From: a virus
Taxonomy: Duplodnaviria > Heunggongvirae > Uroviricota > Caudoviricetes
Length of the DNA: 22,172 nt
IMG/VR virus record: IMGVR_UViG_2585427761_000022
Reading direction: 5' to 3' (one strand)
In this document: in pieces, positions 1,003 through 22,172 of the stretch
Layout: each line of letters opens with the position of its first letter
Numbering within the stretch: position 1 is the first letter of the stretch
Translations under genes and position numbers: made by a program
The notes under the pieces: model-generated
Seen by the model: only the letters and a program-made list of their open reading frames with translations
The model's database searches: none
What the model was told of the DNA's origin: nothing

Positions 1003-1007
1003 TTTAG

Positions 1008-2035: not shown

Positions 2036-2050
2036 GTCACCTCCCTACTA

Positions 2051-2455
2051 TCACCTACCCTTAGTTTCGTTATAGTCACGACCAGCGATACGGTTATTAC
2101 CACCAGAAATATTTAACTCACGTCCTGATGGCTGAGTTTCCTTTTCACTGATCGCACCTTTTAAAGCCCCAATCACCGCATTTTTCACATCTAACGAAGC
2201 TGCTCGAAAGCGAGTAATCAACTCCTGCTCATCATCGTTATAAGTTTCAGGTGAGTGAATTCCCAACACAACATACTGAACATCAAGGCCAAAACGAGAC
2301 AGCGCTGCCAAATACGCAGCATCAGGAAAGCTATCTCCTTTCTCATATCTAAGCTGAGTTAGCTTTTTGACTCCACCAATGTCGCTCATGGCAACTTGAC
2401 TAAGTCCCAATCTTTCCCTTTCCTCACGCAACCGCTGACCAATATCATTTTTCAT
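2051..2455 (-). CDS. Immunity repressor analogue (functional equivalent of P2 C / 186 CI), XRE-family HTH with a C-terminal extension
   Basis: N-terminal Cro/C1-type HTH (LGLSQVAMSDIGGVKKLTQLRYEKG); divergent from the early operon; first gene of a leftward operon ending at int. Confidence 0.85.
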   Translation of the reverse strand: MKNDIGQRLREERERLGLSQVAMSDIGGVKKLTQLRYEKGDSFPDAAYLAALSRFGLDVQYVVLGIHSPETYNDDEQELITRFRAASLDVKNAVIGALKGAISEKETQPSGRELNISGGNNRIAGRDYNETKGR

Positions 2456-7685: not shown

Positions 7686-8496
7686 CATTCATGAACTCAT
7701 CCTTTGCGGTGATCTGCTGGAACGGCAAAATTTGCACCCCCTCTTTGCCCCCGTTGGGCGCATGGATGAGCACGTTTTTAAACGCGCCACCACCACGCGC
7801 ACCCTGTAACGTTTCTTTCAGGGAGTCCATGCTTTCGCGGTTTACCTGCGCTGCACCGATGTAGATGATGCACCCGGCGTGGGATCCATTGTCGTAATAC
7901 AGTTTTCTGAACATGTCCGCCGAATGAGACAGGCTGGCCGAGAGTAATGCGCCAAGATATTCCGGCATGCCGTAAATTTCCTGGTTAATGTCCGGATTCA
8001 TCAGGTGGCACACTTTGCCAGGGCGAAACTGAAACGCATCCTTGCCATCCTGCACATACCACCATGATTCAAGATCGCTTCCGCGTCGCATGTATTTCGC
8101 CAGGGCGTGCCGTAATTTAAGCGGTTCGCCGAACATATTGCTTCGAAGCTCAAGGAATGCGTTACCGAACACAAACCAGTCCAGCGCCAGCGCCGAGAAA
8201 TCCTGCCGGGAAAGCAGCGGGTGCGGGATGTAGCACCCGAGCAATACGTTGCGCTTAAAGTAAAGCGCAGACTGATGCCAGGACGTTTGCCGGGCGGCTC
8301 TTGCCAGACCGTACCAGTCCACCGGGGTTTCATACCACCGCCCGTTATCAGCACAGTACATATTGTCCAGCAAATCATGCCCGGTCAGGCGATAAGGACC
8401 ATCAAAAGTGAATGCACTGAGCGACGATTCTTTCCTGAGCGCATCAGCGAGATCAATGCGTGAACTCATGCGCACTTTTTTATTTTTTCTGCTCAT
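7492..8496 (-). CDS. Q: Portal (capsid portal vertex) protein, P2 gpQ-like
   Basis: 334-aa ORF with conserved portal segment AAHRVPPQLMG; ATG overlaps the terminase stop (TGATG coupling); convergent with A. Confidence 0.85.
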   Translation of the reverse strand: MSRKNKKVRMSSRIDLADALRKESSLSAFTFDGPYRLTGHDLLDNMYCADNGRWYETPVDWYGLARAARQTSWHQSALYFKRNVLLGCYIPHPLLSRQDFSALALDWFVFGNAFLELRSNMFGEPLKLRHALAKYMRRGSDLESWWYVQDGKDAFQFRPGKVCHLMNPDINQEIYGMPEYLGALLSASLSHSADMFRKLYYDNGSHAGCIIYIGAAQVNRESMDSLKETLQGARGGGAFKNVLIHAPNGGKEGVQILPFQQITAKDEFMNVKAASRDDVLAAHRVPPQLMGAMPGVRRLQGLMPPAVPDSWRPGYGGSPCCLRHDYGSGAARAA

Positions 8497-10246
8497 CAGA
8501 ACTCCATAACTGTGAAACGCTCGTTTTCTCCTTCGCCGCCAATTGGTTCGTTAATGACAGCAAGCATGGTTGCCCACGCAAGGTCGCCGTGGCTGCTCCC
8601 CCTCGCGCGGTCCGTTTCGTAAGTGATAAAGCCGCCCGGTGTTTTCACCTTACGCACGGCGTTAAAGGCCGCGACCAGCTCGCGTTCGGCGCGATCGTAT
8701 TCCCACCGCCCGGCACGCATTATTTGCAGCATTTTCAGTACAAGCGACCGTTTTGATGACAGCGTGAAGGTGTACGGAATAGCGGCAGGGAAAAACCGTT
8801 TCACTATCTGATAAACAGCCTCCCCGTTCCCGCCCGTCACATCAATGCCGATGTGTTCCACGTTGTAGCGATACGTGAAATCTTCAATGACTCTGGCCTG
8901 TTCTTCAAACTCCAGCCCCTGAACGCGTCGCGTCTCCACCGTTCGAAAACGGCCACCAGGAACAGCCGGAGGAACCACCACGGACACAGCGCCGCTGTCG
9001 CCGTTGCCACTGCTGCCGTTTGCGTCATACCCAATCCATACCGGACGATTCCCCATCGGGCGGGGAGCAAAAGGTTTCCAGTCTTTCCAGTCGTCGTATC
9101 CGTCAACACCGCAGCCAATCAGGATATTCAGGTTAAATGCCGATTCCCCTTCGCGGACAAACTCACACATATAGAGATTGAGGAACTCGTCTTCGGTGTT
9201 TTCATCACGAATTTCGTCGATATCGGTGTGTTTCCAGCCGTGATTAACCACATCTTCCAGCGTGACAATTTGCCGCCACGTCCGGTCAGGGCAGATAAGC
9301 CCGTTATGCAGCGTTTTCCAGTCCACAGAAAAACGCTGGCGTTTATGCGTGGCCTTTTTCTCGTTCCAGCGGTCGCCGTTCCAGTAGGCGTATGCTTCGT
9401 GCGTTTCGGTGGATGGCGTGGAGAAGTAGGTGCGCCGCAATCCGCTGAGGGTTGCCATAGCGCCAGCCACCTTGCGCAGTTCAGCAAAGCGACTGACCCA
9501 GAAAAATTCATCAAAATAAAAATTGCCCGTATAGGACTGCGCCGACGCAGCAGAAGTGCCGAGAAAATGCAGCTCTGCGCCGTTGGAGAGGATGATTTTA
9601 TCGCCCCCTTTCAGCTCCACATCAACTTCAGCCGCAGCCTTCTGAATAATGCTTTTAAACTGGAACGCCTGACGACGCGACGCAGACAAAAAATCTGGTT
9701 ACGCTGGTAAGGTTGCGCCACATCGTCACGCAGCGCCATCAGCAGTGCTTCCTGTGCAAAATACCAGGTCGCGCCAATCTGTCGGGATTTCAGGATCATC
9801 CTGTTACGTATCCCGGCTTCCCTGCAAAGGGTCAGGGAGTCAAACCAGCCCCGCTGATGCCACTCCAGCCTGCTGATGATTTTTTCCCGCAGTGCGGCAA
9901 TCTGTTCCGGCGTGAAATGATTTTTGAGTTTTTTCGCCCGGCCTTTCTTTCCTGTGGCCGTCGCATCCGGCTGGCCATCATGCATTTTTTTAAGCTGCCG
10001 GGTCAGCAGGTCTATTTCCTTAAAGTCACCGCCTGTTTTATTCTGTTTTTCAGTAAGCTAGATGAGGCGCGCATCGATGGACTGCGTGACACGCTGCACG
10101 GGTGGCGTTTCATCCCACTGGTCGCGTTTTTTCCACGCATAAATCGTGTTCGGGTTTATTCCCATCAGACGTGATATTTCTGCGGGCGGATAACCCTGCC
10201 AGTAAAGTTGCCGCGCACGCTGGCGCACAAAAGCGTCCTGAATCAT
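8496..10246 (-). pseudogene. P: Terminase large (ATPase) subunit, P2 gpP-like, disrupted by an in-frame TAG (10058-10060) and a 1-nt frameshift in an A6 tract (9688-9693)
   Basis: Three ORF-track fragments (10058-10246, 9611-9985, 8496-9689) that read as one terminase when joined: N-terminal HTH-like region, Walker A-like KSRQIGATWYFAQEAL, then large C-terminal domain. Confidence 0.7.
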
Positions 10247-10400
10247 TGCTCCCCCTGAGTAATTACAGGAAGATTACCCGCGCGCGAAACCGTTCTCCTT
10301 AACCCCCTGTTCTGGCCGTTTTCTTACAACAAAAGCCCTTTGTATCAGCCTGTTACGCTTTGCCATCATGACTGAAGAACCAGTCAGAGGGGCAAAAACT
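10247..10400. promoter_or_regulatory. Divergent late-promoter region between P (leftward) and O (rightward), expected site of Ogr/Delta-type activator-dependent promoters
   Basis: 154-bp intergenic region between divergent late operons, positionally as P2 P_P/P_O; no canonical TGT-N12-ACA dyad could be confirmed by eye. Confidence 0.4.
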
Positions 10401-11237
10401 ATGGCTAATGAAAAAAAGACATCCCGCAAAAAGTTTCGCGTGGCTGTCTCCGGATCAACTGTTGATGGCCGCGAAATCAGCCAGGTACATCTGCGTGAAG
10501 CCGCCGAGAACTTCAACCCGGATGTTTACGCTGCCCGCGTGAACGTTGAGCACTATCTCTCGCCATGCCCGTCAAGCGAATTTTCCGCAATGGGCGATGT
10601 CACCGCGCTGAGTACGGAAGATATTACGGAAGGCCCGCTGGCCGGACGTACTGCGCTGTATGCAGAAATCGAACCGACCGAGCGCATGAAGCAGCTTGTC
10701 GCTGACGGCAAGAAAATCTATTCCAGTATCGAACTGCACCCGCAGTTCTCCGTTAACGGGCGCGCCTATCTGGTCGGGCTGGCGATGACCGACACCCCGG
10801 CAAGCCTGGGCACTGAGCGCCTGAAATTCACGGCACAGCAACGTCAGGCGGTGATGACGTTCAACAGTATCCAGGGTGAAGCACCGCTTATCTCCGAAGC
10901 CATCGAGTCTGAAATCATCGAAATGGCAGAACAACGCCAGGAAGAAGGCACCCAGTGGTTTAACCGCGTAATGGGGATTATTGGTCGTGGCCGCAAAGCG
11001 GATGACGCCAGTTTCTCCCGAATTCAGGAAGCGGTGGAAGGCGTTGCAACGTCACAGGCCGACATTATCGACCGTTTTAATGTGCTGGAAACCCGCCATC
11101 AGCAGGACCGCCAGAAAATCACGTCACTGACCACAGAGCTGACAGCATTGAAGGAAAAACTGCGCACGCAGGACGGCGATCCGCAGAACCGCTTCACCGC
11201 AACGGGCGCAGCCTCCGACCAGCTGGCTGACTTCTGA
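10401..11237 (+). CDS. O: Capsid scaffolding protein, P2 gpO-like
   Basis: ATG at 10401 with GAGG upstream; about 279 aa; position between terminase and major capsid genes; acidic and coiled-coil-rich C-terminal half. Confidence 0.8.
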   Translation: MANEKKTSRKKFRVAVSGSTVDGREISQVHLREAAENFNPDVYAARVNVEHYLSPCPSSEFSAMGDVTALSTEDITEGPLAGRTALYAEIEPTERMKQLVADGKKIYSSIELHPQFSVNGRAYLVGLAMTDTPASLGTERLKFTAQQRQAVMTFNSIQGEAPLISEAIESEIIEMAEQRQEEGTQWFNRVMGIIGRGRKADDASFSRIQEAVEGVATSQADIIDRFNVLETRHQQDRQKITSLTTELTALKEKLRTQDGDPQNRFTATGAASDQLADF

Positions 11238-11260
11238 TAAGACAAAGGAGCAAATTTTTT

Positions 11261-12313
11261 ATGAATCTGGTGATGTCAGATATTACCCGCAACAAGCTGG
11301 GTTGCTATATGGCGCAGCAGGCGTCGCTTAACAATATCCCGGTATCTGCACTGGTATCGCGATTTACCGTGGAACCCGCGGTGCAGCAGCGTTTTGAAAA
11401 CGCCTCAAAGGAAAGTACCGAATTTACGAAAAGAATTAACGTGATCGGCGTGACCGACCAGAAAGGCGAAAAAATCCTCCTGGACACCACCGGGCCAATT
11501 GCGCGCACGAATAGCAGTTATGACGGCATCAAACGCCGTAACCCGAATAACGTGCTCGATATGAAGTCTCGTCAGTACCAGTGCGAACAGGTGAACTACG
11601 ATACCTTTATTTCGTACCCACAGCTTGATACCTGGGCAGCCCACAGCGATTTTCAGTCCCGTATCAGTACACAGATCGCCCGGCAGGTAGCGCTTGATCG
11701 CATCATGATTGGCTTTAACGGCACATCCCACGCCTACGAGTCTGATTTTCACACCAACAAGCTGCTTCAGGACGTTAACGTGGGCTGGCTGGAGCACATC
11801 AGAACCGATGCCAGCGAGCGCGTAATGAATGACGTGACGCTGACCTCCCGCAACATGGACAACACTGTGGCGCACGCGGGTAAGTATGCGAATGCCGATG
11901 CTCTGGTACAGGATGCGCGCTCATCCCTGCTGGATGAATGGCACAAGGAAGCTGACGACCTCGCGGTGATTATGGGGCGCAACCTGTTTAACTCGCTGCG
12001 TCTGCCCGTGCTGAACAGCATCAGCGGCCAGAATCCCAATGCGGAATTACTTGCCGGGCAGCTCATCCTGTCATCGCGCACCATTGGCGGGCTGGGCGTG
12101 TTCCTTGCGCCGTTCTTCCCGGATGCAACGATGCTTATCACCTCGTTCAACAACCTGTCGATTTACTGGCAGAAAGGTTCAATGCGTCGCCTGATGAAAG
12201 ACGAGCCGGAATACAACCGCATCGCCACCTACCAGTCCATCAATGACGCTTATGTCGTTGAAGACTATGGCAAGTGCGCGATGATCACTGGCCTGAAGTT
12301 CGCCGACAGCTAA
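11261..12313 (+). CDS. N: Major capsid protein, P2 gpN-like
   Basis: 350 aa; RBS AAGGAG; recalled similarity to P2 gpN (FTVEP..., GFNGT, LSIYWQ, YVVEDY blocks). Confidence 0.9.
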   Translation: MNLVMSDITRNKLGCYMAQQASLNNIPVSALVSRFTVEPAVQQRFENASKESTEFTKRINVIGVTDQKGEKILLDTTGPIARTNSSYDGIKRRNPNNVLDMKSRQYQCEQVNYDTFISYPQLDTWAAHSDFQSRISTQIARQVALDRIMIGFNGTSHAYESDFHTNKLLQDVNVGWLEHIRTDASERVMNDVTLTSRNMDNTVAHAGKYANADALVQDARSSLLDEWHKEADDLAVIMGRNLFNSLRLPVLNSISGQNPNAELLAGQLILSSRTIGGLGVFLAPFFPDATMLITSFNNLSIYWQKGSMRRLMKDEPEYNRIATYQSINDAYVVEDYGKCAMITGLKFADS

Positions 12314-12322
12314 TCAACTCAC

Positions 12323-12341
12323 GGCGGGCATCATGCCCGCC
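12323..12341 (+). other. Stem-loop (8-bp stem GGCGGGCA/TGCCCGCC, 3-nt loop) just downstream of N; possible attenuator, no U-tract
   Basis: Perfect inverted repeat 10 nt after the N stop codon. Confidence 0.35.
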
Positions 12342-12358
12342 TGTAACGGAGAGAAAAA

Positions 12359-13159
12359 ATGATTACTCCTGCACAACAACACTGGCAGAACGTGATGGCA
12401 CAGCGCGCAGGCCGGGCGAATGAAGGTGTGGACCACGCCGCGCGTACCGCGCATGAAGAGGTGCTGTATCGTCTGCGTCTGGCACAGGCCAGGCTAAAGG
12501 GCGTACAGGCCAGAAGCGCGAAAGCCGCCATCAAAAAAGAGTTGTTGCCGGACTTTTCCGGCTGGATTGAGGGAACGCTGGAGACTGACGGCGGGCAACA
12601 GGACGAAGTAATTGCCACGCTGATGGTGTGGGCGATTGACTGCGGCGATCTTCCGCTGGCGCTGCGTATTGGTGCATATGTGGTCCGTCACAACCTCATC
12701 ATGCCGGATAACTTTGGCCGTACTGCTGCCACGGTACTGACCGAAGAAATCTGCAACCCGGTACTGACGCAGGCCGGGACGGATGCCGACGCGGATTTAT
12801 CCGCCTTTATCGAACCACTGGACACACTTTGGGAAATTGTCGCCAACCAGGACATGCCGGACGAAGTGCGCGCCAAATTATGCAAGGCGTGTGCCTTTGC
12901 CCGTCGTGGCCTGACCGATGCAGACAACATGGCCTCATCACTGAAGCTGCTGCGCGAAGCGATGCACCTGAACCCGAACGCAGGTGTGAAACGCGAGATT
13001 GCAACCCTTTCCCGCGCCCTGAAAAAAGCCGATTCCGCAGCCGCACCAGAAGACGCCAGCGCACAGCAGACGCAGGACGAAAGCAGCAAAAGTAAAAAGA
13101 CAACGCAGAAGCCTGCAACACGAAAAACCACCGCGTCGCAGAAGGCGAAGCGCGGTTAA
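12359..13159 (+). CDS. M: Terminase small (endonuclease) subunit, P2 gpM-like
   Basis: 266 aa; RBS GGAGAG; position after N; basic Lys/Arg-rich C-terminal tail. Confidence 0.8.
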   Translation: MITPAQQHWQNVMAQRAGRANEGVDHAARTAHEEVLYRLRLAQARLKGVQARSAKAAIKKELLPDFSGWIEGTLETDGGQQDEVIATLMVWAIDCGDLPLALRIGAYVVRHNLIMPDNFGRTAATVLTEEICNPVLTQAGTDADADLSAFIEPLDTLWEIVANQDMPDEVRAKLCKACAFARRGLTDADNMASSLKLLREAMHLNPNAGVKREIATLSRALKKADSAAAPEDASAQQTQDESSKSKKTTQKPATRKTTASQKAKRG

Positions 13160-13174
13160 CGACTGACCCCGTCA

Positions 13175-13248
13175 GCGGGCGGCGTGCGCGGTGTTCCGGT
13201 TTGACTCCGTGACCGTTTACACCGCGCACCCACCGCCCGATTTTTTTT
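13175..13248 (+). terminator. Candidate Rho-independent terminator or attenuator: long imperfect inverted repeat (13175-13194 / 13219-13239) followed by T8 (13241-13248)
   Basis: GCGGGCGGCGTGCGCGGTGT ... ACACCGCGCACCCACCGCCCG then TTTTTTTT, between M and L. Confidence 0.5.
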
Positions 13249-13262
13249 CAGGAGTGAACTCC

Positions 13263-13757
13263 ATGAGTATGGTTGCCAGAACTGAACCAGGACCCGCAGA
13301 GGACGACATCACCGATACCGATGATGGCGACACTCGCATTTCAGCAGGTGCATTCTGGCCGGATATTGTGCTGCGCGAGCTGCGTCTGGCGGTACGACTG
13401 CCGGGCCGCGTGACCACCTCCCGCCTGCTGCATACCGCCACTGGGGCCGTGGCTCACGTTACCCGCGAACTGGAAGCGTGGCAGCAGGAACAGCAGGCGG
13501 CTGGCCATCAGACGCTGGCCGATGTTCCGGCACCCGTAATTAACGGAGAAAGCGTCAATCTCTGGCACTGGCGCAATGCTGTTTATACCGCCACACGTGC
13601 CCTGATTCTGGAGCGTTACCGCGATGCGGACACAACGGACAAGGGCGATCGCCGGGCGGACGCACTGGATATACAGACATCGGATTTGTGGCGCGATGTG
13701 AGCTGGGCCATCTCTGACATTCTGTGCCGCCCGCGAATCTTTGCGGAGTTGTGCTGA
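13263..13757 (+). CDS. L: Head completion/stabilisation protein, P2 gpL-like
   Basis: About 164 aa from ATG at 13263 with RBS AGGAG; position after M; stop overlaps the X start. Confidence 0.75.
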   Translation: MSMVARTEPGPAEDDITDTDDGDTRISAGAFWPDIVLRELRLAVRLPGRVTTSRLLHTATGAVAHVTRELEAWQQEQQAAGHQTLADVPAPVINGESVNLWHWRNAVYTATRALILERYRDADTTDKGDRRADALDIQTSDLWRDVSWAISDILCRPRIFAELC

Positions 13758-13957
13758 TGAAAGTGAAGGCACTGGAAGACGACACCGTGGATTCGCTCTG
13801 TTTCCGGTACTACGGCACGACGCAGGGCGTCACCGAAAAGGTGCTGGATGCCAACCCCGGACTCTGTCAGCAGGTATTTCTGGACGCCGGGCAGGAAGTG
13901 GAGATGCCGGAGCCGGAGAAGAAGAAACGAGAAATGATTCAGTTGTGGGGGGAGTAG
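13757..13957 (+). CDS. X: Tail protein X-like small protein (66 aa)
   Basis: ATGA overlap with the L stop; size and position as P2 gpX. Confidence 0.7.
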   Translation: MKVKALEDDTVDSLCFRYYGTTQGVTEKVLDANPGLCQQVFLDAGQEVEMPEPEKKKREMIQLWGE

Positions 13958-13959
13958 CA

Positions 13960-14283
13960 GTGAGCACCATTCAAACAGGGATCACAGAGCAGGTTATTGC
14001 GTGGCTCTTTGACCACCTGCCAACGGTGTATGCAGTAGGCGCGGCGGTCAGCATTTCAGCGCTGATGAGTCTTTATGACGGACGAACACTGGTTCAGACC
14101 GTAACGGGATCGCTGGCGTGCGGCGTTCTTGCCATGGCCGTGGCCGGGTCGTTGCGCTTCTTCGGGTTTCCTGAAGATGCCGTAACGTTTATCGGCGCAT
14201 CAATCGGTTTTATGGGGGCAGAGAAAGTACGCGACAAGGTTATTGCGGCCTTTAATCGCAGGGTGAAGGAGAAGGACGAATGA
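13960..14283 (+). CDS. Holin (about 107 aa, GTG start, multiple TM helices)
   Basis: RBS GGGGGAG before GTG at 13960; hydrophobic segments VYAVGAAVSISALMSL, VTGSLACGVLAMAVAGSL, VTFIGASIGFMGA; directly upstream of the endolysin. Confidence 0.65.
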   Translation: MSTIQTGITEQVIAWLFDHLPTVYAVGAAVSISALMSLYDGRTLVQTVTGSLACGVLAMAVAGSLRFFGFPEDAVTFIGASIGFMGAEKVRDKVIAAFNRRVKEKDE

Positions 14284-14672
14284 GCAACACATTTAAATTC
14301 AGCAGCCGGAGCGAAAAGAATTTGCAGGGCGTAAATCCTGATCTGGTGAAAGTGACCCGACGGGCACTGGAAATTTCGGAAGTGGATTTTGGTATCACCG
14401 AAGGATTGCGCAGCCGTTACCGCCAGAAGCAACTTGTGGCCACGGGTAAGAGCCATACCATAAACAGCCGCCACCTTACGGGGCATGCCGTGGATGTTGT
14501 GGCTTATGTCGGCAGCCAGGTGTCATGGGAATGGCCGCTGTACGAAAAAATCGCAGCAGCATTCAGACAGGCCAGCCAGGAACTGAATATTCCGGTGGAA
14601 TGGGGCGGCGACTGGAAGACCCTGAAAGACGGACCGCATTTTCAGTTACCACACGGAGCCTATCCGGCATGA
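14280..14672 (+). CDS. Endolysin, peptidase M15-type (zinc D-Ala-D-Ala carboxypeptidase / L-Ala-D-Glu endopeptidase family), not a P2 K-type lysozyme
   Basis: 130 aa; motif SRHLTGHAVDV typical of the VanY/M15 metal-binding site; between holin and spanins; ATGA coupling. Confidence 0.75.
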   Translation: MSNTFKFSSRSEKNLQGVNPDLVKVTRRALEISEVDFGITEGLRSRYRQKQLVATGKSHTINSRHLTGHAVDVVAYVGSQVSWEWPLYEKIAAAFRQASQELNIPVEWGGDWKTLKDGPHFQLPHGAYPA

Positions 14673-15142
14673 AGCTCTGGCCCACGCTTGGCGTCGCTTT
14701 CCTTCTGATTGCCGCATGGGGAACATCCATGCGTCTGTCGTGGTCGCTGGGCCGGGAGAACGCCAGAAACGAAGCGCAGACCAGCACCCTGAAAAGTACC
14801 GTCGACACACTGAATATCATCAGCGCCGGGGTACAGGATATGCAGCAGGTGCTGGCTCAACTCCGCGCGGAAAATCAGCAACGCAATCAGGACGGAGAGG
14901 TAAGACGTGAACAGCTACGCAACGATATTGCAAAAGATGAATGCGCCCACGCTTTGCCTGACGCTCGTTTTACTGACAGGTTGCGCAGGCACGCAGAACG
15001 CGCCACGGCCAGCGCCGTCAATCCGGCTTATACCGCAGACGCTGACCATGCCGGTAACGCCTCCCCCCTTCCCTGCCCCACCCACATGGGGAAACCTCGG
15101 AATATGGGGCGACCGCCTTCTGGATGCACTGGAAACCTGTAA
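14669..15142 (+). CDS. i-spanin (Rz / LysB-like), N-terminal TM plus coiled coil
   Basis: ATG at 14669 overlaps the endolysin stop; TM segment LGVAFLLIAAWGT followed by a Gln/Arg-rich helical region. Confidence 0.7.
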   Translation: MKLWPTLGVAFLLIAAWGTSMRLSWSLGRENARNEAQTSTLKSTVDTLNIISAGVQDMQQVLAQLRAENQQRNQDGEVRREQLRNDIAKDECAHALPDARFTDRLRRHAERATASAVNPAYTADADHAGNASPLPCPTHMGKPRNMGRPPSGCTGNL

Positions 15143-15218
15143 CGCGGATAAACGGGCCATTGCTGAACTGGATAAGAGAATAGCCGAACTGACACACCAG
15201 ACGGGAGTAACACAATGA
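14907..15218 (+). CDS. o-spanin (Rz1 / LysC-like) outer-membrane lipoprotein, starting inside the i-spanin gene in the +1 frame and extending past it
   Basis: Lipobox LLTGC; Pro-rich mature region; GTG at 14907 with RBS GGAGAGG (ATG at 14937 is an alternative start); classic overlapped spanin architecture. Confidence 0.6.
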   Translation: MNSYATILQKMNAPTLCLTLVLLTGCAGTQNAPRPAPSIRLIPQTLTMPVTPPPFPAPPTWGNLGIWGDRLLDALETCNADKRAIAELDKRIAELTHQTGVTQ

Positions 15219-17095
15219 CCAGTAAGAACTTTGCACTGATTACAGCCATGACACAGGCTGAACTGACCCGGAAAGTGAATGAATATCTTGCGAAGGGGTG
15301 GCATCTTCAGGGGGACACACGGGTAGCTTACGAGCCCGGCACCCCGTGGTATCTCATGCAGGCCATGGTGGCCGATGGTGCCACCGAGACGCCCTCTGAG
15401 CCATTACCAAACAACAAGACGCCGGAATGGTACTACGTGGTTGTGCTTGCCGGGCAGTCCAACGGCATGGCTTACGGTGAAGGGCTTCCGTTACCGGATT
15501 CTTACGATGCTCCGGATCCGCGCATTAAACAGCTTGCGCGCCGCAGTACGGTAACCCCGGGTGGAGAGGGTTGTACGTATAACGACATCATCCCGGCTGA
15601 CCACTGTCTGCATGATGTGCAGGATATGAGTACGCTGAATCATCCGAAGGCGGACCTGAGCAAAGGTCAGTACGGCTGTGTGGGACAGGGACTTCATATT
15701 GCCAAAAAACTACTCCCGTATATCCCGAATAACGCGGGGATCCTGCTGGTACCATGCTGTCGTGGTGGTTCGGCATTCACTCAGGGCGCGGAGGGAACAT
15801 TCAGTACGACCACGGGGGCCAGCCAGGATTCGGCGCGCTGGGGTGCGGGTAAGCCGTTATATCAGGACCTGATCGCACGCACCAAAGCGGCATTACAGAA
15901 GAACCCGAAAAATGTGTTGCTGGCGGTGTGCTGGATGCAGGGCGAATTTGACATGAGCGCTGCCACCTACGCACAGCAACCGGACCTGTTCACGGCCATG
16001 CTGAAGCAGTTCCGTACTGACCTTTCCGGATTTAACGCGCAGTGCCATGGCGGCAGTGCTGCAGTTATACCGTGGATTTGTGGCGACACGACGTATTACT
16101 GGAAAAACACATACGGCACACAGTATGACTCCGTCTACGGCGCGTACAAAAACAGGGAGAGCGACAACGTTTTCTTTGTGCCGTTCATGACCGACGGTAA
16201 CGGCAACAACACGCCCACCAACTTACCGGCAGAAGACCCGGATATTGCTGATGCAGGTTATTACGGCGCGCAATCCCGTAGTAATGGTAATTGGGTATCG
16301 TCAAATCGTCCGACACATTTCAGTTCATGGGCGCGCAGGGGCATTATTTCGGATCGCCTGGCAACCGCTATTCTGAACGCAGTTGGTCGAACCAGCGCCT
16401 TCATCAGCGGTACCGCACCGGAAATCAAACCCTCGCCCGGCGGCGACACTCCATCGGGGCCGTCTGATGGTGACACATCCGTTCGTACAGTCTCCCTGCT
16501 GCCGACAGCCGGAGAGGCTGCTGCGCAGGGCTGGACCATCACCGGCGGCAGTGTTGCGCTGGAAGATGGTGTGTTTAAGGTTACCAAGCAGAGCAATAAA
16601 ACTTGGTCCCTGATGCATCCGGTGGATGACGCAGTCTCCCTGCTGACACGGGGTGGCAGACTGAGCTGTAAGTTTCGACTGTCAGGCGCACTGACCAACA
16701 ACCAGTTCGGTCTGGGAATTTATCTGTATACCGATGTAGCGTTACCTGACGTCGTGGCGATGACCGGGACTGGTAACCCGTTCCTGATGTCGTTCTTCAC
16801 CCAGACCACAGACGGCAAACTGAATCTGATGCATCACAAGAAAGCCGGAAACACAAAGTTGGGTGAGTTCGGGAATTACAGTAACGACTGGCAGACGCTG
16901 GAGCTGGTGTTCACCGCCGGCAGTGCCACGGTTACTCCGAAACTGAATGGAGTGGCTGGCCCGGCATTCCAGGTCATAAAAGACAGTCTGACACTGGGGC
17001 TGAATGCGCTGACGTTAACTGATATCACTAAAAATGCCGCGTACGGCGTCGATATCGGCAGCCTGGTGCTGGAAATCAATAATCCCGCAGTATAA
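15215..17095 (+). CDS. NanS-p-like sialate (9-O-acetyl) esterase moron: N-terminal DUF1737-like domain, SASA/SGNH-type esterase domain, C-terminal putative carbohydrate-binding domain
   Basis: 626 aa; N-terminus FALITAMTQAELTRKVNEYLAKGWHLQG (DUF1737-like); catalytic-type motif VVLAGQSNGMAYGEG; ATG overlaps the o-spanin stop; no equivalent gene in P2. Confidence 0.7.
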   Translation: MTSKNFALITAMTQAELTRKVNEYLAKGWHLQGDTRVAYEPGTPWYLMQAMVADGATETPSEPLPNNKTPEWYYVVVLAGQSNGMAYGEGLPLPDSYDAPDPRIKQLARRSTVTPGGEGCTYNDIIPADHCLHDVQDMSTLNHPKADLSKGQYGCVGQGLHIAKKLLPYIPNNAGILLVPCCRGGSAFTQGAEGTFSTTTGASQDSARWGAGKPLYQDLIARTKAALQKNPKNVLLAVCWMQGEFDMSAATYAQQPDLFTAMLKQFRTDLSGFNAQCHGGSAAVIPWICGDTTYYWKNTYGTQYDSVYGAYKNRESDNVFFVPFMTDGNGNNTPTNLPAEDPDIADAGYYGAQSRSNGNWVSSNRPTHFSSWARRGIISDRLATAILNAVGRTSAFISGTAPEIKPSPGGDTPSGPSDGDTSVRTVSLLPTAGEAAAQGWTITGGSVALEDGVFKVTKQSNKTWSLMHPVDDAVSLLTRGGRLSCKFRLSGALTNNQFGLGIYLYTDVALPDVVAMTGTGNPFLMSFFTQTTDGKLNLMHHKKAGNTKLGEFGNYSNDWQTLELVFTAGSATVTPKLNGVAGPAFQVIKDSLTLGLNALTLTDITKNAAYGVDIGSLVLEINNPAV

Positions 17096-17118
17096 GGAAG
17101 AGCAGGAGAGCAAAACAG

Positions 17119-17586
17119 ATGCTTAAGACAAACAGTCTGCGAGAGTCCATGCTTCATGGATGTCGGTGGTGCCAGGCTAATCCCGAGAAATTCACCATTT
17201 TCGTGGAGAGCGGCAACATTGAAACGACCGGAGAAGCGCCCTCGTTTGTTTACCGCTATCAGATGGTGATGTTTATCATGGATTACGCCGGAGAGCTGGA
17301 CGACCTCACGCTGCCGCTGCTGGCGTGGTTATCCGAAAATCAGCCACAGTTGTTGCTCAATCCGGAGCGTAATCAGGACATCAAATTTTCTGCCGTTATC
17401 AATGACGATGACAGCGCCGATCTCCTGTTTACGCTCCCCCTGCGGGAACGCGTTCGCATCACGCGCAACAGTCAGGGCACACCGCAGGCAGAACACCTGC
17501 CGGAGCCAAAACCCCGTCTGCCTTCTTCCGAAGGCGACTGGTCGCATGTATTCCAGGATGTGACGTGGGGTGAAAGCGATGGATAA
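17119..17586 (+). CDS. R: Tail completion protein, P2 gpR-like
   Basis: 155 aa, same size as P2 gpR; RBS AGGAGAG; first gene after the lysis/moron block. Confidence 0.8.
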   Translation: MLKTNSLRESMLHGCRWCQANPEKFTIFVESGNIETTGEAPSFVYRYQMVMFIMDYAGELDDLTLPLLAWLSENQPQLLLNPERNQDIKFSAVINDDDSADLLFTLPLRERVRITRNSQGTPQAEHLPEPKPRLPSSEGDWSHVFQDVTWGESDG

Positions 17587-18214
17587 GGCATTCACCCGCG
17601 TGGATGAAACCTTTGAGGCTATCCGCGACAGCCTGAATCAGCAGGCCATCAATAACATCGCCAGAAAGCTGGCACAGGATTTACGTCGCGCCCAGCAGGC
17701 ACGTATCCGGTCACAAAAAGCGCCGGACGGGACCGAATGGACACCACGCAGACGCCGCGTAACCCGGATACAGGAGCGCATTCGCTTTATCTGGAATAAC
17801 GAAGCACGCACGCTGAAAAACTGGCATCACGACACGGGGAAATACGGGCGAACCATTACCGGGTGGGATGAGGATAAAAACAATATCCGCACGTTTTACC
17901 GGGATGACATCGACCGTTTTCTGGAAATACGCACCCGGCGCATCAACCAGGACAGCACAAAGCGCGTCCCCATGTTCGTAAAACTGCGCACCGCCCGCTA
18001 CCTGAAAGCCCGTGCAGATGCCTCCGGTGTGACGGTGGGTTACAGCGGCGTGGCCGCACGTATTGCACGCGTTCATCAGTTCGGTGAGCGCGATCAGGTT
18101 GCGCCGGGCATTTTCACCGATTACCCGGTACGTGAGCTGTTGGGTATCAGCCAGGCAGATGAGCGCCTGATTTATAACACGGTGCTGGGCCGGATTGCGG
18201 AGGCTGTACGGTGA
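17579..18214 (+). CDS. S: Tail completion / virion morphogenesis protein, P2 gpS-like (about 211 aa, longer than the ~150 aa I recall for P2 S)
   Basis: ATG at 17579 overlapping the R 3' end; position between R and V. Confidence 0.7.
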   Translation: MDKAFTRVDETFEAIRDSLNQQAINNIARKLAQDLRRAQQARIRSQKAPDGTEWTPRRRRVTRIQERIRFIWNNEARTLKNWHHDTGKYGRTITGWDEDKNNIRTFYRDDIDRFLEIRTRRINQDSTKRVPMFVKLRTARYLKARADASGVTVGYSGVAARIARVHQFGERDQVAPGIFTDYPVRELLGISQADERLIYNTVLGRIAEAVR

Positions 18215-18792
18215 GCGCAGAACTCATGCGACTGCTGAGCAACATCATCCGCACCGGGATCATCTCTGAAGTTGATGAGAAGTCCTGGCGCGTGCGCGTT
18301 CGCAGCGGCGAACTGGAAACAGGCTGGTTGCGCTGGAACACCACGCGCGCGGGAGCCTTCAATGTGTGGCTGCCGCCATCACCAGGCGAACAGGTGGTAA
18401 TTGCCTGCATTGGCGGCAACCCGGAAACCGCCATGATAATTGGCAGCCTGTGGAGTGATGCCAGTCCGGCCCCCGGCAAAAGCCTGAAAGAAATCGTGGT
18501 CAGCGCGCCGGATGGCGCGGTGTTCCGCTACGACGCAGACGCTGGCGCACTGAGCGCCAGCGGCATGAAAACAGCCACCCTGCAGGCATCCGTCAGCGTG
18601 ACACTGGATACGCCCGTCGTGGAATGCACAAACCTTCTGAGAACAGCGACGCTTGACGTCACAAAAGGGGGAAAGATGAGCGGCAATATCACGCACAGCG
18701 GCGGCAACTTCACCTCAAACGGCATCACAGTGCATACGCATAAACACGGTGGCGTTAAAGGTGGCAGCGATTCGACAGGAGGCCCGCAGTGA
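18211..18792 (+). CDS. V: Baseplate spike/assembly protein, P2 gpV-like
   Basis: GTG start with RBS GGAGG and GTGA overlap with S; recalled conserved block IRTGII..EQV.I..GG as in P2 gpV. Confidence 0.8.
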   Translation: MSAELMRLLSNIIRTGIISEVDEKSWRVRVRSGELETGWLRWNTTRAGAFNVWLPPSPGEQVVIACIGGNPETAMIIGSLWSDASPAPGKSLKEIVVSAPDGAVFRYDADAGALSASGMKTATLQASVSVTLDTPVVECTNLLRTATLDVTKGGKMSGNITHSGGNFTSNGITVHTHKHGGVKGGSDSTGGPQ

Positions 18793-19139
18793 CAGCCCGC
18801 TACACAGGAATGAACCCGGACGGGACGGGAAACCTGAATGATATGGAGCACCTGAAACAGTCAGCCAGGGACATCCTGACCACCCCGCTGGCCAGCCGGG
18901 TTATGCGACGGGAATATGGCAGCCTTGTACCTGATTTGATTGACGAACCCATGAATAACACCACGCGTCTGCAATGCATGAGTGCTGCCGTGATTGCGCT
19001 GACACGATGGGAACCCCGCATTGCCCTGGACGCCATCGACGTTGTCTGGAAAGCGGGAGGCCGCGCCGGGGTGACGCTGTCGGGCACAGTCATGCAGACC
19101 ATGCAGAATGTTGAGTTAACCATCACGCTGAGGGAGTAA
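18789..19139 (+). CDS. W: Baseplate wedge protein, P2 gpW-like (GPW/gp25 family)
   Basis: 116 aa; GTG start with RBS AGGAGG; GTGA overlap with V; position. Confidence 0.8.
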   Translation: MTARYTGMNPDGTGNLNDMEHLKQSARDILTTPLASRVMRREYGSLVPDLIDEPMNNTTRLQCMSAAVIALTRWEPRIALDAIDVVWKAGGRAGVTLSGTVMQTMQNVELTITLRE

Positions 19140-19142
19140 ATC

Positions 19143-20039
19143 ATGCCTGCTGTTGACCTTTCCCAGTTACCGGAACCCGCCATCATCGCGGAGCCTGACT
19201 TTGAAGCAATTCTGGCTGACACAAAGGCCATGATGATTGCGTCCTATCCTGCCGAACAGCGTGAAGCCGTCTCCGCCGCGCTGGAGCTGGAATCGGAGCC
19301 CCTGAACGTTATCGCTCAAACCATGTCTTTTCGTGAAATGCTGTTACGCCAGCGGGTTAACGAGGGCGCACGCGCCTGCATGTTAAGCCACGGTTCAGGG
19401 ACAAACCTGGACAACCTCGCGGGCAATATGAACACAAAGCGCCTGGTTATCACTCCGGCAACGGATACCACCGACGCGGTGATGGAGAGCGACACCTCGC
19501 TGAGACTGCGGGCGCAGCGGGCGTATGACGGCCTGAGTGTTGCTGGCCCGTCAGGTGCATACGAGTATTTTGCACGCAGCGCCAGCGGTCTGGTGCGTAA
19601 TGCGCGGGCCATCAGCCCGTCTCCGGCCTGTGTGACGGTTTCCATTCTGTCCACTGAAGGCGACGGCACAGCAACGGAGGCGTTGCTTAATACCGTTCGC
19701 GCCGTTCTGAATGCAGAGGATACCCGCCCGGTGGCCGACCGCCTGACGGTACAGAGCGCCAGAATCGTGACATGGCGGCTGAATGCAAAACTGTACTTTT
19801 ACCCCGGCCCGGAATCCGAACCTATTCTGGCCGCGGCGGAATCGTCATTCAGGAAGTGGCTGGCTGAACAGGGGCTTATCGGTCAGGACGTGGCGTTGTC
19901 CGCCATTGCTGCCGCACTGCATGTGCACGGTGTGCAACGCGTGGAGATAATCGAACCCACACAGAATATGGCCATCAGCGACATACAGGCGGCGCGCTGT
20001 GAGTCATTCACCATCAGCGAAGGTGGGCGCAATGAGTAA
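19143..20039 (+). CDS. J: Baseplate assembly protein, P2 gpJ-like
   Basis: 298 aa (P2 J about 302 aa); RBS GAGGGAG; position. Confidence 0.85.
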   Translation: MPAVDLSQLPEPAIIAEPDFEAILADTKAMMIASYPAEQREAVSAALELESEPLNVIAQTMSFREMLLRQRVNEGARACMLSHGSGTNLDNLAGNMNTKRLVITPATDTTDAVMESDTSLRLRAQRAYDGLSVAGPSGAYEYFARSASGLVRNARAISPSPACVTVSILSTEGDGTATEALLNTVRAVLNAEDTRPVADRLTVQSARIVTWRLNAKLYFYPGPESEPILAAAESSFRKWLAEQGLIGQDVALSAIAAALHVHGVQRVEIIEPTQNMAISDIQAARCESFTISEGGRNE

Positions 20040-20640
20040 TTCACTGTTACCACCATCAGCCAGCAATTTCATGCGTTGTGCCGAAGCCGTCGGAACACGC
20101 ATTACAGACATTCCGGTAGACCTCAACACGCTGTGGTCGCCGGACACCTGCCCGGTGCATCTGCTGCCTTATCTCGCCTGGGCGTTTTCCGTTGACCGCT
20201 GGGATCGCAACTGGCCGGAAGAGACAAAGCGACAGGTGATTCGTGATGCATGGCTGACACACCGACACAAAGGGACCATCAGCGCACTGCGAAGAGCCGT
20301 GGAGCCTCTCGGCTACCTGATTGAAGTAAAGGAGTGGTGGCAACTCAACGAGGAGCCAGGAACATTTCGCATTGTTGTCGGAGTACTTGATCAGGGCATC
20401 ACCGATGAAATGTATCAGGAACTTGAGCGCCTTATTGCGGATGCAAAACCAGTAAGTCGCCATCTGACGGGGCTGGCGATCAGCCTGAGTGTGAACGGAA
20501 AGATTTTCGTTGGTACGGGATGCTATCACGGCGATGCCCTGACGGTTTATCCCTACATCCCGGAGTCCATTATTGTCGAAGGGGATTATTTCCCTGCCCC
20601 GGCCATTCATTTAATTGATAATCTGAGAGTAAACGCATGA
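20032..20640 (+). CDS. I: Baseplate protein, P2 gpI-like
   Basis: ATG at 20032 overlapping the J stop; about 202 aa; position. Confidence 0.8.
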   Translation: MSNSLLPPSASNFMRCAEAVGTRITDIPVDLNTLWSPDTCPVHLLPYLAWAFSVDRWDRNWPEETKRQVIRDAWLTHRHKGTISALRRAVEPLGYLIEVKEWWQLNEEPGTFRIVVGVLDQGITDEMYQELERLIADAKPVSRHLTGLAISLSVNGKIFVGTGCYHGDALTVYPYIPESIIVEGDYFPAPAIHLIDNLRVNA

Positions 20641-22172
20641 CAGTGAAATACTACGCCATTCTGACTAATCAGGGCGCGGCGCGACTGGCTAACGCGACGA
20701 TGCCCGGCAGTAAGCTGAATCTGACGCAAATGGCCGTTGGTGATGCAAATGGTGTGTTACCAACACCAGACCCTGCACAAACAAAACTGATTAACCAGAA
20801 ACGCATTGCACCGCTGAATCTTCTGAATGTTGACCCTAACAATCAGAGCCAGATTATTGCGGAGCAAATCATCCCTGAAGACGAGGGAGGATTCTGGATC
20901 CGTGAGATTGGTCTTTATGATGATAAAGGTGTACTCATTGCGGTGGCAAACTGCCCGGAAACGTACAAACCGCAGTTGCAGGAAGGCAGTGGACGCACCC
21001 AGACTATCCGCATGATTCTGGTTGTCACGAACACCAAAGCCATCACGCTGAAAATCGACCCGTCTGTGGTTCTGGCAACCCGCAAATATGTGGATGATAA
21101 AATCTCAAAGCACGAGCAGTCACGACGTCACCCGGACGCCTCGCTGACCGCAAAAGGCTTTGTTCAACTCAGTAGCGCCACCAACAGCGATTCAGAAACG
21201 CTGGCGGCAACACCAAAGGCGGTAAAGGCAGCCTATGACCTTGCTAACGGGAAATATACCGCACAGGACGCCACGACAGCACAAAAAGGCATTGTCCAGC
21301 TCAGTAGCGCCACCAACAGCGATTCAGAAACGCTGGCGGCAACACCAAAGGCGGTAAAGGCAGCCTATGACCTTGCTAACGGGAAATATACCGCACAGGA
21401 CGCCACGACAGCACAAAAAGGCATTGTCCAGCTCAGTAGCGCCACCAACAGCGATTCAGAAACGCTGGCGGCAACACCAAAGGCGGTAAAGGCAGCCTAT
21501 GACCTTGCTAACGGGAAATATACCGCACAGGACGCCACGACAGCACAAAAAGGCATTGTCCAGCTCAGTAGCGCCACCAACAGCGATTCAGAAACGCTGG
21601 CGGCAACACCAAAGGCGGTAAAGGCAGCCTATGACCTTGCTAACGGGAAATATACCGCACAGGACGCCACGACGGCACAAAAAGGAATTGTCCAGCTCAG
21701 TAGTGCAACCAACAGCACATCTGAAACGCTTGCTGCAACACCGAAAGCAGTGAAAGCAGCTAATGACAATGCGAATGGTCGGGTACCTTCTGCCCGTAAG
21801 GTGAATGGTAAGGCGCTTTCGGCGGATATAACACTGACGCCGAAAGATATTGGTACGCTTAACTCAACAACAATGTCATTCAGCGGTGGTGCTGGTTGGT
21901 TCAAATTAGCAACGGTAACCATGCCACAGGCGAGTTCTGTTGTTTCAATTACGTTGATTGGTGGCGCTGGATTTAACGTCGGTTCACCTCAACAGGCAGG
22001 TATATCTGAACTTGTTTTGCGTGCAGGTAATGGTAATCCGAAGGGGATTACTGGTGCTTTATGGCAGCGCACATCGACAGGGTTTACAAATTTTGCCTGG
22101 GTCAATACATCTGGTGATACTTACGATATTTACGTTGCAATCGGAAATTATGCGACTGGTGTAAATATTCAA
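20637..22172 (+). CDS. H: Tail fibre protein, P2 gpH-like, 5' partial (open to window end); not in the supplied ORF track
   Basis: ATGA overlap with the I stop; open frame to the window edge; recalled similarity to the P2 gpH N-terminus (RHPDASLTAKGF.QLSSATNS.SETLAATPKAVKAAYDLANGKYTAQDAT). Confidence 0.8.
   Translation, partial: MTVKYYAILTNQGAARLANATMPGSKLNLTQMAVGDANGVLPTPDPAQTKLINQKRIAPLNLLNVDPNNQSQIIAEQIIPEDEGGFWIREIGLYDDKGVLIAVANCPETYKPQLQEGSGRTQTIRMILVVTNTKAITLKIDPSVVLATRKYVDDKISKHEQSRRHPDASLTAKGFVQLSSATNSDSETLAATPKAVKAAYDLANGKYTAQDATTAQKGIVQLSSATNSDSETLAATPKAVKAAYDLANGKYTAQDATTAQKGIVQLSSATNSDSETLAATPKAVKAAYDLANGKYTAQDATTAQKGIVQLSSATNSDSETLAATPKAVKAAYDLANGKYTAQDATTAQKGIVQLSSATNSTSETLAATPKAVKAANDNANGRVPSARKVNGKALSADITLTPKDIGTLNSTTMSFSGGAGWFKLATVTMPQASSVVSITLIGGAGFNVGSPQQAGISELVLRAGNGNPKGITGALWQRTSTGFTNFAWVNTSGDTYDIYVAIGNYATGVNIQ
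21168..21770 (+). repeat. In-frame 132-bp (44-codon) tandem repeat inside tail-fibre gene H: three identical copies, a fourth with 2 substitutions, and diverged flanking copies
   Basis: Copies start at 21168, 21300, 21432, 21564 and (diverged) 21696; unit encodes LSSATNSDSETLAATPKAVKAAYDLANGKYTAQDATTAQKGIVQ. Confidence 0.9.

Follow-up and report, generated by a model that had tools for sequence, protein, structure and literature searches.

The lysis genes analysed here very probably represent the usual lysis cassette found in the late operon of a P88-like Escherichia coli prophage (Xuanwuvirus, Peduoviridae), into which a gene for a NanS-p-type esterase has been inserted, between lysC and the tail completion gene R. 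In the window (the whole stretch of DNA analysed, 22,172 nucleotides) the block lies within a P2-type late O operon, with the following features:

13757 to 13957, + strand: tail gene X (Pfam Phage_tail_X, E 1.4e-19), upstream boundary of the lysis block
13960 to 14283, + strand: holin, 107 aa, GTG start, Pfam Phage_holin_3_1 (PF05106)
14280 to 14672, + strand: M15C endolysin, 130 aa, Peptidase_M15_4
14669 to 15142, + strand: i-spanin (LysB/Rz-like), 157 aa, phrog_214
14907 (GTG) or 14937 (ATG) to 15218, + strand: o-spanin (LysC family lipoprotein), Pfam LysC
15163 to 17136, + strand: segment additional to P88, replacing 69 bp of P88
15215 to 17095, + strand: NanS-p-type esterase homologue, 626 aa, DUF1737 + SASA + DUF6645
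17119 to 17586, + strand: tail completion gene R (Pfam P2_Phage_GpR, E 1e-38), downstream boundary
17570 to 18214, + strand: tail completion gene S (Pfam Phage_tail_S), context

The lysis and esterase ORFs are strong family matches rather than chance ORFs, and the holin, the M15 endolysin, the overlapped spanins and the esterase are all present where an earlier note on this DNA had placed them. The start/stop overlaps that it described exist between holin and endolysin, endolysin and i-spanin, and o-spanin and esterase, each pair sharing an ATGA (14280–14283, 14669–14672 and 15215–15218), but X and the holin do not overlap, the GTG start of the latter following the TAG stop of X after a gap of 2 nt. 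There is indeed no lysA gene in the lysis block, nor room for one; the endolysin stop overlaps the i-spanin start.

Comparison with P88 at the DNA level (blastn) showed 96.7% identity over 7611–15162 and 95% over 17137–20475, with 15163–17136 as the only gap. Besides the esterase gene, this segment supplies a new tail for lysC, the first 6 codons of R and a 23-bp spacer in which a Shine-Dalgarno sequence is present. P88 itself presents the order X-holin-M15-DUF2570-R-S, without the esterase; its LysC ends in ...ELLEQRRLQRLNNEDNNHAEN, overlapping R, and its i-spanin has 135 aa. Across P88 and other Xuanwuvirus members the order (X, holin, M15 endolysin, i-spanin/o-spanin, R, S) and the ATGA couplings are those of the window. 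Six of the proteins are 95–99% identical to those of P88: X is 98.5% identical (47% to P2 X), the holin 97%, the endolysin 97%, the i-spanin 95%, R 94.8% (its first ~15 codons being divergent) and S 99.5%. The comparison thus shows the four lysis genes to be P88-clade genes, vertically inherited. The esterase, in turn, arrived separately from them, because only 15163–17136 is inserted relative to P88.

The same insertion is found in a subset of the clade, including 569R5, 705R2, Entero_P88(23), and prophages of O104:H4 and ST131. Of 5,426 closed E. coli genomes, more than 1,000 (roughly one in five) have a P88-like lysC junction, the esterase-less form being present in about 689 and the lysC-esterase form in 376. 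PGAP annotation already labels these genes, and the lysis cassette itself is routine, already annotated in a common prophage group.

We infer the direction of the event, insertion here rather than loss in P88, from this distribution only. Were the esterase ancestral at the site in the P88-like clade, P88 and the other esterase-less members would have lost it by deletion. The 376 carrier genomes are in line with such a history, and so are the lysC tail and R head, which differ between esterase-plus and esterase-minus genomes; therefore, neither junction state derives simply from the other. However, the esterase-less junction is the commoner of the two (689 genomes), spanins are followed directly by R in other Peduoviridae (3LV2017, phiT5282H, SEN5, P2), and the catalytic and C-terminal parts of the esterase are common to lambdoid phages, which carry the gene in much greater diversity and number. 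An ancestral esterase is accordingly quite improbable, and insertion between lysC and R is the reading followed below.

The holin, of class I type, is a member of the lambda S family, matching PF05106 with 72.8 bits (cut-off 23.8), TIGR01594 holin_lambda with 57.0 bits (cut-off 55.05) and phrog_126 with E 1e-35. It presents hydrophobic stretches at residues 20–39 and 44–70 and a charged C-tail, and by homology its topology would be that of the family. Lambda S has the same length of 107 aa, but the two proteins are only 22.6% identical and the holin here has no Met-Lys-Met dual-start motif, its N-terminus reading V/M-S-T-I-Q... with the first internal Met at residue 36. P2 Y is a PF04550/phrog_175 protein, whereas the holin here matches PF05106/phrog_126 only.

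The endolysin is a predicted L-alanyl-D-glutamate endopeptidase, a cleavage specificity assigned by homology. It matches Peptidase_M15_4 (E 1.3e-11) and phrog_465 (E 5.5e-75), and its motif SRHLTGHAVDV provides H65-x6-D72 which, together with H120/H125, gives the zinc-binding H-x6-D...H pattern. No hydrophobic N-terminus was found, indicating a soluble enzyme. Among solved structures it matches ChiX 5opz (E 3.7e-47), 8q2g and 23ri (both ~E 4e-47) and the T5 endolysin 2mxz (2e-22). M15C endopeptidases such as the T5 endolysin, the RB49-type enzymes and Serratia ChiX share with it the length of ~130 aa, the H-x6-D...H motif and the sequence-structure matches, although they come from virulent phages or a bacterial secretion system, with holins unrelated to the one here. 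P2 K, on the other hand, is a lambda-R-like lysozyme (55% identical to lambda R). By their family matches (PF05106 versus PF04550; M15 versus lysozyme), holin and endolysin are therefore both of non-P2 type, as the earlier note had claimed for the endolysin.

The i-spanin, with an N-terminal membrane helix, matches best phrog_214 (E 1.7e-42) and weakly phrog_89, the P2 LysB family (E 3e-4), and DUF2570. At 15074–15076, the site of the usual stop codon, the sequence here is TGC, which extends the C-terminus by 22 aa; in 4 of 4 relatives (P88, with its 135 aa, AR_0013, 569R5 and Entero_P88(23)) the protein stops after ...ASPLP. For the o-spanin, the GTG start at 14907 is preceded by a good Shine-Dalgarno sequence (GGAGAGG) and a lipobox, LTGC, is located at 14973–14984. 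Pfam LysC (PF23793; cut-off 27) is matched both by this protein, with 52.3 bits, and by P2 LysC, with 64.9. Its last 18 codons (from 15163) fall within the inserted segment, so that the C-terminus is AELDKRIAELTHQTGVTQ here versus ELLEQRRLQRLNNEDNNHAEN in P88. The o-spanin gene overlaps that of the i-spanin in a different frame, an overlapped arrangement and not the embedded one of lambda Rz/Rz1. The overlapped pair was correctly recognised in the earlier note, but not the contrast drawn there with P2, whose lysB (7922–8347) and lysC (8202–8492) overlap likewise and whose o-spanin is of the same Pfam family.

Placed side by side, the P2 lysis region occupies the same X-to-R site in the late O operon, with an overlapped i-/o-spanin pair and a Pfam LysC o-spanin, although P2 LysC is only 26% identical to the protein here. 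The P2 set (Y, K, lysA, lysB, lysC) comprises another holin family, the lambda-R-like lysozyme K and lysA, as opposed to an M15 peptidase without lysA, and the P2 spanin pair lies directly upstream of R, where here the esterase gene sits in between. The lambda cassette is more distant: it has the R transglycosylase and embedded Rz/Rz1 and is located downstream of Q, while the present one has a peptidase and overlapped spanins outside PF03245 and PF06085, and is not downstream of Q. Within the lysis block, no family match was found to R-type transglycosylase, Rz (PF03245) or Rz1 (PF06085), which lambda's own proteins match strongly; NCBIfam returned no match at E ≤ 0.001 for the endolysin, the spanins or the esterase.

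Taken globally, the lysis cassette is a deep gene-by-gene mosaic that combines a holin of the lambda family, an M15 endolysin of wide distribution and spanins of Peduoviridae type. The nearest non-P88 relatives of its genes are dispersed, and taken together they are not lambdoid. Outside the P88 group, the nearest relative of the endolysin is that of Salmonella phage SP069 (Nonanavirus), 75% identical and beside an unrelated holin; SEN5 and phiNP pair related holins with different lysins; in Shae_phiSM the same holin and spanins accompany a GH108 lysin; and relatives of the spanins are found in Peduoviridae genera only.

The earlier note had proposed a single import, in which one lambdoid prophage module comprising holin, endolysin, spanins and esterase entered a P2-type structural operon, the order of lysis block and esterase being that of lambdoid prophages. 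To some extent the data are compatible with this: the holin is in the lambda S family, the esterase DNA is ~87% identical to that of Stx-phage nanS-p, with local identity of at least 99.5% against other lambdoid alleles, and the gene adjoins the lysis cassette in both phage types. To compare the arrangements we examined 83 loci (80 of them the best IMG/VR loci among at least 597 IMG/VR stretches matched), of which 70 are lambdoid; a scan for the esterase with one genome per species yielded 5 loci only, a number too small to be informative. The esterase precedes the lysis genes in every one of the 70 lambdoid loci, 150–450 bp upstream of the holin (pinholin), the reverse of the order in the window. 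The pinholin, SAR-type lysozyme and Rz of these loci have no homologues among the genes here, and Q is located upstream in them, whereas the lysis genes of the window are located between P2-type X and R.

The lysis genes are instead the standard set of a well-sampled P2-like clade, that of P88, a finding that the earlier note itself had named as counter to its proposal. P88 has identical lysis genes without the esterase, only 15163–17136 is inserted, and the breakpoints lie inside lysC and R rather than outside the lysis block. The spanins, moreover, are of the Peduoviridae LysB/LysC type, and an identity of 22% places the holin far from lambda S. Comparing composition between block and flanks revealed no step (GC 0.53–0.59 and GC3 0.59–0.62 from holin to esterase, flanks 0.63–0.69; X, at 0.76, is short): the joint import gains nothing from it, although the check is uninformative on import as such. 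Lambdoid kinship is confirmed for the esterase, which has close lambdoid relatives, and not for the lysis genes, which match P88. The single-import model is thus effectively refuted, and the P88-type cassette with a separately inserted esterase stands.

The esterase has the layout of a DUF1737 domain, an SGNH/SASA catalytic domain and a lectin-like C-terminal domain, with DUF1737, SASA and DUF6645 all above the Pfam cut-offs. Residues 69–388 match the structure of NanS (PDB 3pt5, E 1e-122) and residues 431–623 the NanS-p C-domain (6yp6, E 4e-30), while GQSN and RPTHFSS align to the NanS catalytic Ser and His positions. The RPTH variant of block IV has been described in one Stx2a-phage allele (PMC10462455). 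With the esterase of Stx phage YYZ-2008 the protein shares 80.6% identity, and with NanS-p 80–90% overall; no signal peptide was found in it. It is a homologue of the NanS-p-type sialate 9-O-acetylesterases, whose substrate it would share. NanS-p of Stx and lambdoid prophages (933W L0105, phi24B vb_24B_21) has the same three domains, lacks a signal peptide and is located in the late operon beside lysis genes. The esterase here, in contrast, is carried by a P2-like myovirus and lies downstream of the o-spanin, lambdoid NanS-p being upstream of the holin.

Along its length, the esterase gene divides into parts of different affinity:

15215 to 15420, + strand: esterase 5' end (DUF1737 domain), an allele found only beside lysC in P88-like prophages
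15865 to 17014, + strand: esterase body near-identical to lambdoid-prophage alleles (100-bp window identity)

The allele at the 5' end was found in only 3 phage records, all P88-like (tblastn), and in 376–378 closed E. coli genomes, always under lysC/DUF6645 annotations; the N-terminus is ~33% identical to its lambdoid counterpart. The last ~80 bp of the gene are likewise specific to the P88-like context. The body presents a different picture. Per 100-bp window, 15865–17014 is 97–100% (mostly 99–100%) identical to the lambdoid locus L025, while other alleles borne by P88-like prophages (L036, L041) are only 71–91% identical before 16615. Over these 1,150 bp, the identity is 99.5–99.6% to esterases directly upstream of a class II holin, as in 266917_2, where esterase and class II holin are followed by YdfR, lysozyme and Rz; the FDAARGOS_1248 copy lies in a degraded prophage. 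Because of this near-identity to lambdoid-prophage alleles, we interpret 15865–17014 as a recent recombination tract.

Recombination with lambdoid-prophage alleles thus continues in the esterase body, while both ends stay specific to the P88 context. With the case about evenly balanced, the NanS-p-type esterase may serve more generally as a shared homology patch for DNA exchange between two unrelated temperate phage families of E. coli, P88-like myoviruses and lambdoid siphoviruses. Its left end would be fixed by the lysC tail and the private DUF1737 allele, its right end by the last ~80 bp and R, and its body repeatedly overwritten by lambdoid alleles. Two IMG/VR records, L023 and L024, join P88-like lysis genes and the esterase to a lambdoid pinholin and lysozyme. 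We rejected them as real chimeras: their junction was present in 0 of 5,426 closed genomes (flank-only query), and they are probable misassemblies across near-identical esterase copies.

The prophage carrying this copy of the cassette looks defective. Through a deletion of ~2.95 kb, with 11-bp microhomology, gpA and the portal gene have lost their 3' ends (the last 76 codons in gpA, ~51 codons in the portal gene), and the cargo that lies between A and Q is gone, probably along with cos; terL, in turn, is frameshifted in an A-run. Together with the 22-aa read-through of the i-spanin, these defects imply that the cassette may never fire here. It is conceivable, at slightly less than an even chance, that the cassette of this prophage is an inert relic whose late operon is never activated, the i-spanin read-through being part of its decay. 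The gpA/portal deletion and the terL frameshift argue for this, as do the loss of an i-spanin stop codon kept in 4 of 4 relatives and the portal pseudogene in the nearly identical AR_0013 prophage. However, the ORFs of holin, endolysin, o-spanin and esterase are intact and 97–100% identical to those of intact relatives, and the terL frameshift could be a sequencing error. Furthermore, the late genes of a defective P2-like prophage could be trans-activated by a helper or satellite, as in P2/P4.

Where the cassette is expressed, family membership suggests the following mechanism. The lambda-S-family holin would build up in the inner membrane and trigger holes, through which the soluble M15 L-Ala-D-Glu endopeptidase would cross to cut the peptide stems of the peptidoglycan. 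The membrane-anchored i-spanin and the lipoprotein o-spanin would then fuse inner and outer membranes. The esterase would be translationally coupled to lysC by the ATGA overlap, and the search for a promoter or terminator of its own gave only chance-level consensus matches. With no export signal, coupling to lysC and no promoter or terminator of its own, the esterase is therefore expected to be produced with the late genes and released only at lysis. Its position beside the lysis cassette in both phage families may reflect selection for lysis release of an enzyme without a signal peptide.

Once released, the esterase would remove 9-O-acetyl groups from sialic acids outside the cell, as the NanS-p enzymes of Stx phages do. 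NanS-p activity and late expression have been described in Stx phages (PMC8065619, PMC10462455), and five nanS-p alleles of O104:H4, which also carries the P88-like lysC-esterase arrangement, are reported to be active (PMC8065619). A different role, raised as an open question for NanS-p (PMC8065619), is that the enzyme serves the phage and not lysogen nutrition: by stripping O-acetyl groups from bacterial surface glycans (O-antigen, sialic-acid capsule) after lysis, it would keep the progeny from being trapped on debris or let them reach the receptors of neighbouring cells. The lectin-like C-terminal domain and the consistent position of the gene beside the lysis cassette in two unrelated phage families would fit such a function. 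Nevertheless, all that has been demonstrated for NanS-p enzymes is that they de-O-acetylate Neu5,9Ac2 and mucin glycans and favour the growth of lysogens (PMC8065619), so we consider a phage-serving role unlikely.

In the literature searched, no description of nanS-p in P2-like phages was found, the genes being discussed there only as lambdoid or Stx-phage genes. NanS-p-type esterases are nevertheless present in P2-like prophages of ~7% of closed E. coli genomes, O104:H4 and ST131 among them, which matters when nanS-p alleles are counted and typed. The esterase of the window also illustrates cleanly how phage families can recombine within one cargo gene and nowhere else.

Gene order and coordinates were taken from the raw sequence together with an ORF list, and assignments from profile searches. 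From tail gene X to S, the genes are tightly packed and all on the same strand, and the searches supported every assignment in the string.

Genes of the X-to-S string in the window (all on the same strand), with supporting profiles
13757-13957, tail gene X; Phage_tail_X
13960-14283, holin, GTG start, 107 aa; Phage_holin_3_1, TIGR01594 'holin_lambda', phrog_126
14280-14672, endolysin, 130 aa; Peptidase_M15_4, phrog_465
14669-15142, i-spanin, 157 aa; phrog_214
14907 or 14937 to 15218, o-spanin, in another frame than the i-spanin; Pfam LysC
15215-17095, esterase, 626 aa; DUF1737, SASA and DUF6645
17119-17586, R; GpR
17570-18214, S; Phage_tail_S

The ORF list, the profiles and the sequence checks bear out the genes of the lysis block and esterase as the earlier note had described them. 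ATGA start/stop overlaps link holin and endolysin (14280), endolysin and i-spanin (14669), and o-spanin and esterase (15215); X and the holin lie 2 nt apart. In simple sequence checks, the endolysin carries H65-x6-D72 and a non-hydrophobic N-terminus, the i-spanin an N-terminal membrane helix, and the o-spanin a lipobox (LTGC, 14973-14984), while no signal-like segment was found in the esterase. For the o-spanin we favor the GTG at 14907 over the start at 14937, because GGAGAGG precedes it and a lysine-containing signal peptide n-region results. RefSeq/PGAP annotates lysC as 62 aa from an ATA codon (comparison loci L007, 16331-16519, and L014, 2868-3056; window 15030-15218), removing both signal peptide and lipobox; the biologically sensible start is GTG 14907 or ATG 14937.

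We then compared the window proteins with those of P2 and lambda. The holin belongs to the lambda S family and lies outside the P2 Y family, yet it shares only 22.6% identity with S and has no dual-start motif. The endolysin is, as proposed, of a non-P2 type: P2 K is a lysozyme, whereas the window enzyme is an M15C peptidase. P2 K is itself 55% identical to lambda R, which makes P2's own lysin the 'lambdoid' one. The absence of lysA from the window was also confirmed. The spanins, on the other hand, offer no contrast to P2: the o-spanin shares a Pfam family with P2 LysC, the i-spanin weakly matches the P2 LysB PHROG, and P2 lysB and lysC overlap exactly as the window spanins do.

Spanin relatives in the phage collection occur only in Peduoviridae (Xuanwuvirus, Reginaelenavirus 3LV2017 and Novemvirus phiT5282H), all with the order X-holin-lysin-spanin-R-S and no lysA. 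In the Xuanwuvirus Citrobacter phage Shae_phiSM (L013 1959-2504) the holin and spanins are shared (~90% identical) while a GH108 lysin replaces M15, a swap of one gene within the cassette. Related holins accompany different lysins in P2-like SEN5 (56% identical) and lambdoid phiNP (42%), and the nearest endolysin outside the P88 group (75% identical) belongs to a Nonanavirus whose holin is unrelated. The components thus have separate histories, and the cassette is a deep gene-by-gene mosaic fixed in the P88 clade, the only sense in which the label 'mosaic' holds, rather than a recent import. Neither GC nor GC3 shows a step across the cassette.

In a nucleotide search of phage records, P88-like P2-family phages matched the lysis genes, and Stx and other lambdoid phages matched only the esterase. 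Escherichia phage P88 (NC_026014, Xuanwuvirus, Peduoviridae) is 96.7% identical to the window over 7611-15162 and 95% over 17137-20475 at the DNA level; its holin (97%), endolysin (97%) and i-spanin (95%) match at the protein level. P88 has the same order, X-holin-M15-DUF2570-R-S, without an esterase, and the idea that lysis genes and esterase (13960-17095) arrived as one lambdoid module is refuted on the earlier note's own terms. RefSeq already labels these genes 'phage holin, lambda family', 'M15 family metallopeptidase', 'DUF2570', 'lysC' and 'DUF6645 domain-containing protein'; the lysis cassette is known and routinely annotated.

In place of 69 bp of P88, the window has the segment 15163-17136. 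Its left breakpoint falls within lysC, whose final 18 codons are new (AELDKRIAELTHQTGVTQ in the window, ELLEQRRLQRLNNEDNNHAEN in P88), and its right one in the first codons of R. The insert is flanked by diverged versions of the lysC tail and of the head of R; we infer that P88-like phages passed this segment with its esterase among themselves through homologous recombination in the two genes. The esterase-less P88 junction was present in 689 of 5,426 closed E. coli genomes, and the lysC-esterase junction in 376, O104:H4 outbreak strains among them. In ST131 strain EC958 the P88 lysC-R query matches in its lysC half only, consistent with the same insertion.

This prophage copy is probably defective. 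An 11-bp microhomology junction (7611-7621, CGCC[T/C]GGCATC), touching the gpA ORF (5028-7685) and the portal ORF (7492-8496), marks a ~2.95-kb deletion relative to P88 and the near-identical prophage of E. coli AR_0013. It removes the 3' ends of replication gene A (endonuclease, last 76 codons) and portal gene Q (~51 codons), the variable cargo between them and presumably cos. In the large terminase gene terL (minus strand, 8496-10247), an A-run at 9688-9693 is one base short (A6, against A7 in P88 and AR_0013), causing a frameshift that is either genuine decay or a sequencing error in the homopolymer. The i-spanin has lost a stop that four of four relatives examined keep (TGC at 15074-15076 for TGA/TAA), adding 22 residues (CPTHMGKPRNMGRPPSGCTGNL) up to 15142; in the o-spanin frame, which overlaps here, the same substitution replaces D (N in P88) with A. 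The ORFs of the lysis genes and the esterase are intact. Elsewhere, identity to P88 falls to ~67-84% from ~20475 on, and the tail-fibre gene contains a 132-bp tandem repeat at 21152-21767 (4.7 copies, 95% matches). On the minus strand, window 1-2455 encodes an integrase that the window edge truncates, as well as a DUF2511 protein, an unassigned 216-aa ORF and an HTH repressor-like ORF; its low GC (35-46%) and lack of DNA similarity to P88 mark it as an integration and immunity module different from that of P88.

Esterase residues 69-388 match E. coli NanS (PDB 3pt5, E 1e-122), with the GQSN serine and block-IV histidine aligned, and residues 431-623 the NanS-p C-terminal domain (6yp6), the three-domain layout reported from Stx phages (PMC10462455, PMC8065619). 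No description of NanS-p genes in P2-like phages was found in the literature searched, some key primary papers being outside its reach. Mechanistically, signals for translational coupling are observed between the cassette genes, no promoter or terminator match inside the block rises above chance, and export signals are absent from endolysin and esterase. By family, lysis would follow the canonical holin-endolysin-spanin pathway, and the esterase would be made along with the other late genes of the O operon and freed at lysis to de-O-acetylate sialic acids outside the cell. Alternatively, it could serve the phage by removing acetyl groups from glycans on the bacterial surface.

We classified 83 esterase-related loci by neighboring genes. 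In all 70 lambdoid loci a pinholin-lysozyme-Rz cassette begins 150-450 bp downstream of the esterase, the reverse of the order that the earlier note took as lambdoid, and in all 10 P88-like loci the esterase comes directly after lysC; the adjoining lysis genes are not homologous. The gene is itself a mosaic. Two of its parts are exclusive to P88-like contexts: the 5' end (15163-15420), with the DUF1737 allele, and the final ~80 bp. Over 15865-17014, windows of 100 bp give 97-100% identity to lambdoid-prophage alleles, most of them 99-100%, whereas other P88-like-borne alleles reach only 71-91%, up to ~16615. Closed E. coli genomes confirm the match: esterases with a class II holin immediately after them share 99.5-99.6% identity with the window across this 1,150-bp stretch. 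Of these copies, the one in FDAARGOS_1248 is part of a degraded prophage, and the one in 266917_2 has YdfR, lysozyme and Rz after the holin; one of these strains also bears a P88-like prophage. IMG/VR loci likewise contain lambdoid-prophage copies of at least 99.5% identity. This pattern is indicative of a recent gene conversion across phage families. Two IMG/VR contigs (L023 and L024) join P88-like X-holin-M15-spanins through the esterase to lambdoid pinholin-lysozyme-Rz, a junction present in 0 of the 5,426 closed genomes; both contigs were probably misassembled across esterase copies of nearly the same sequence. The esterase alone links the window to lambdoid prophages, through repeated recombination within the gene, and this cross-family exchange is a modest addition to a known cassette.
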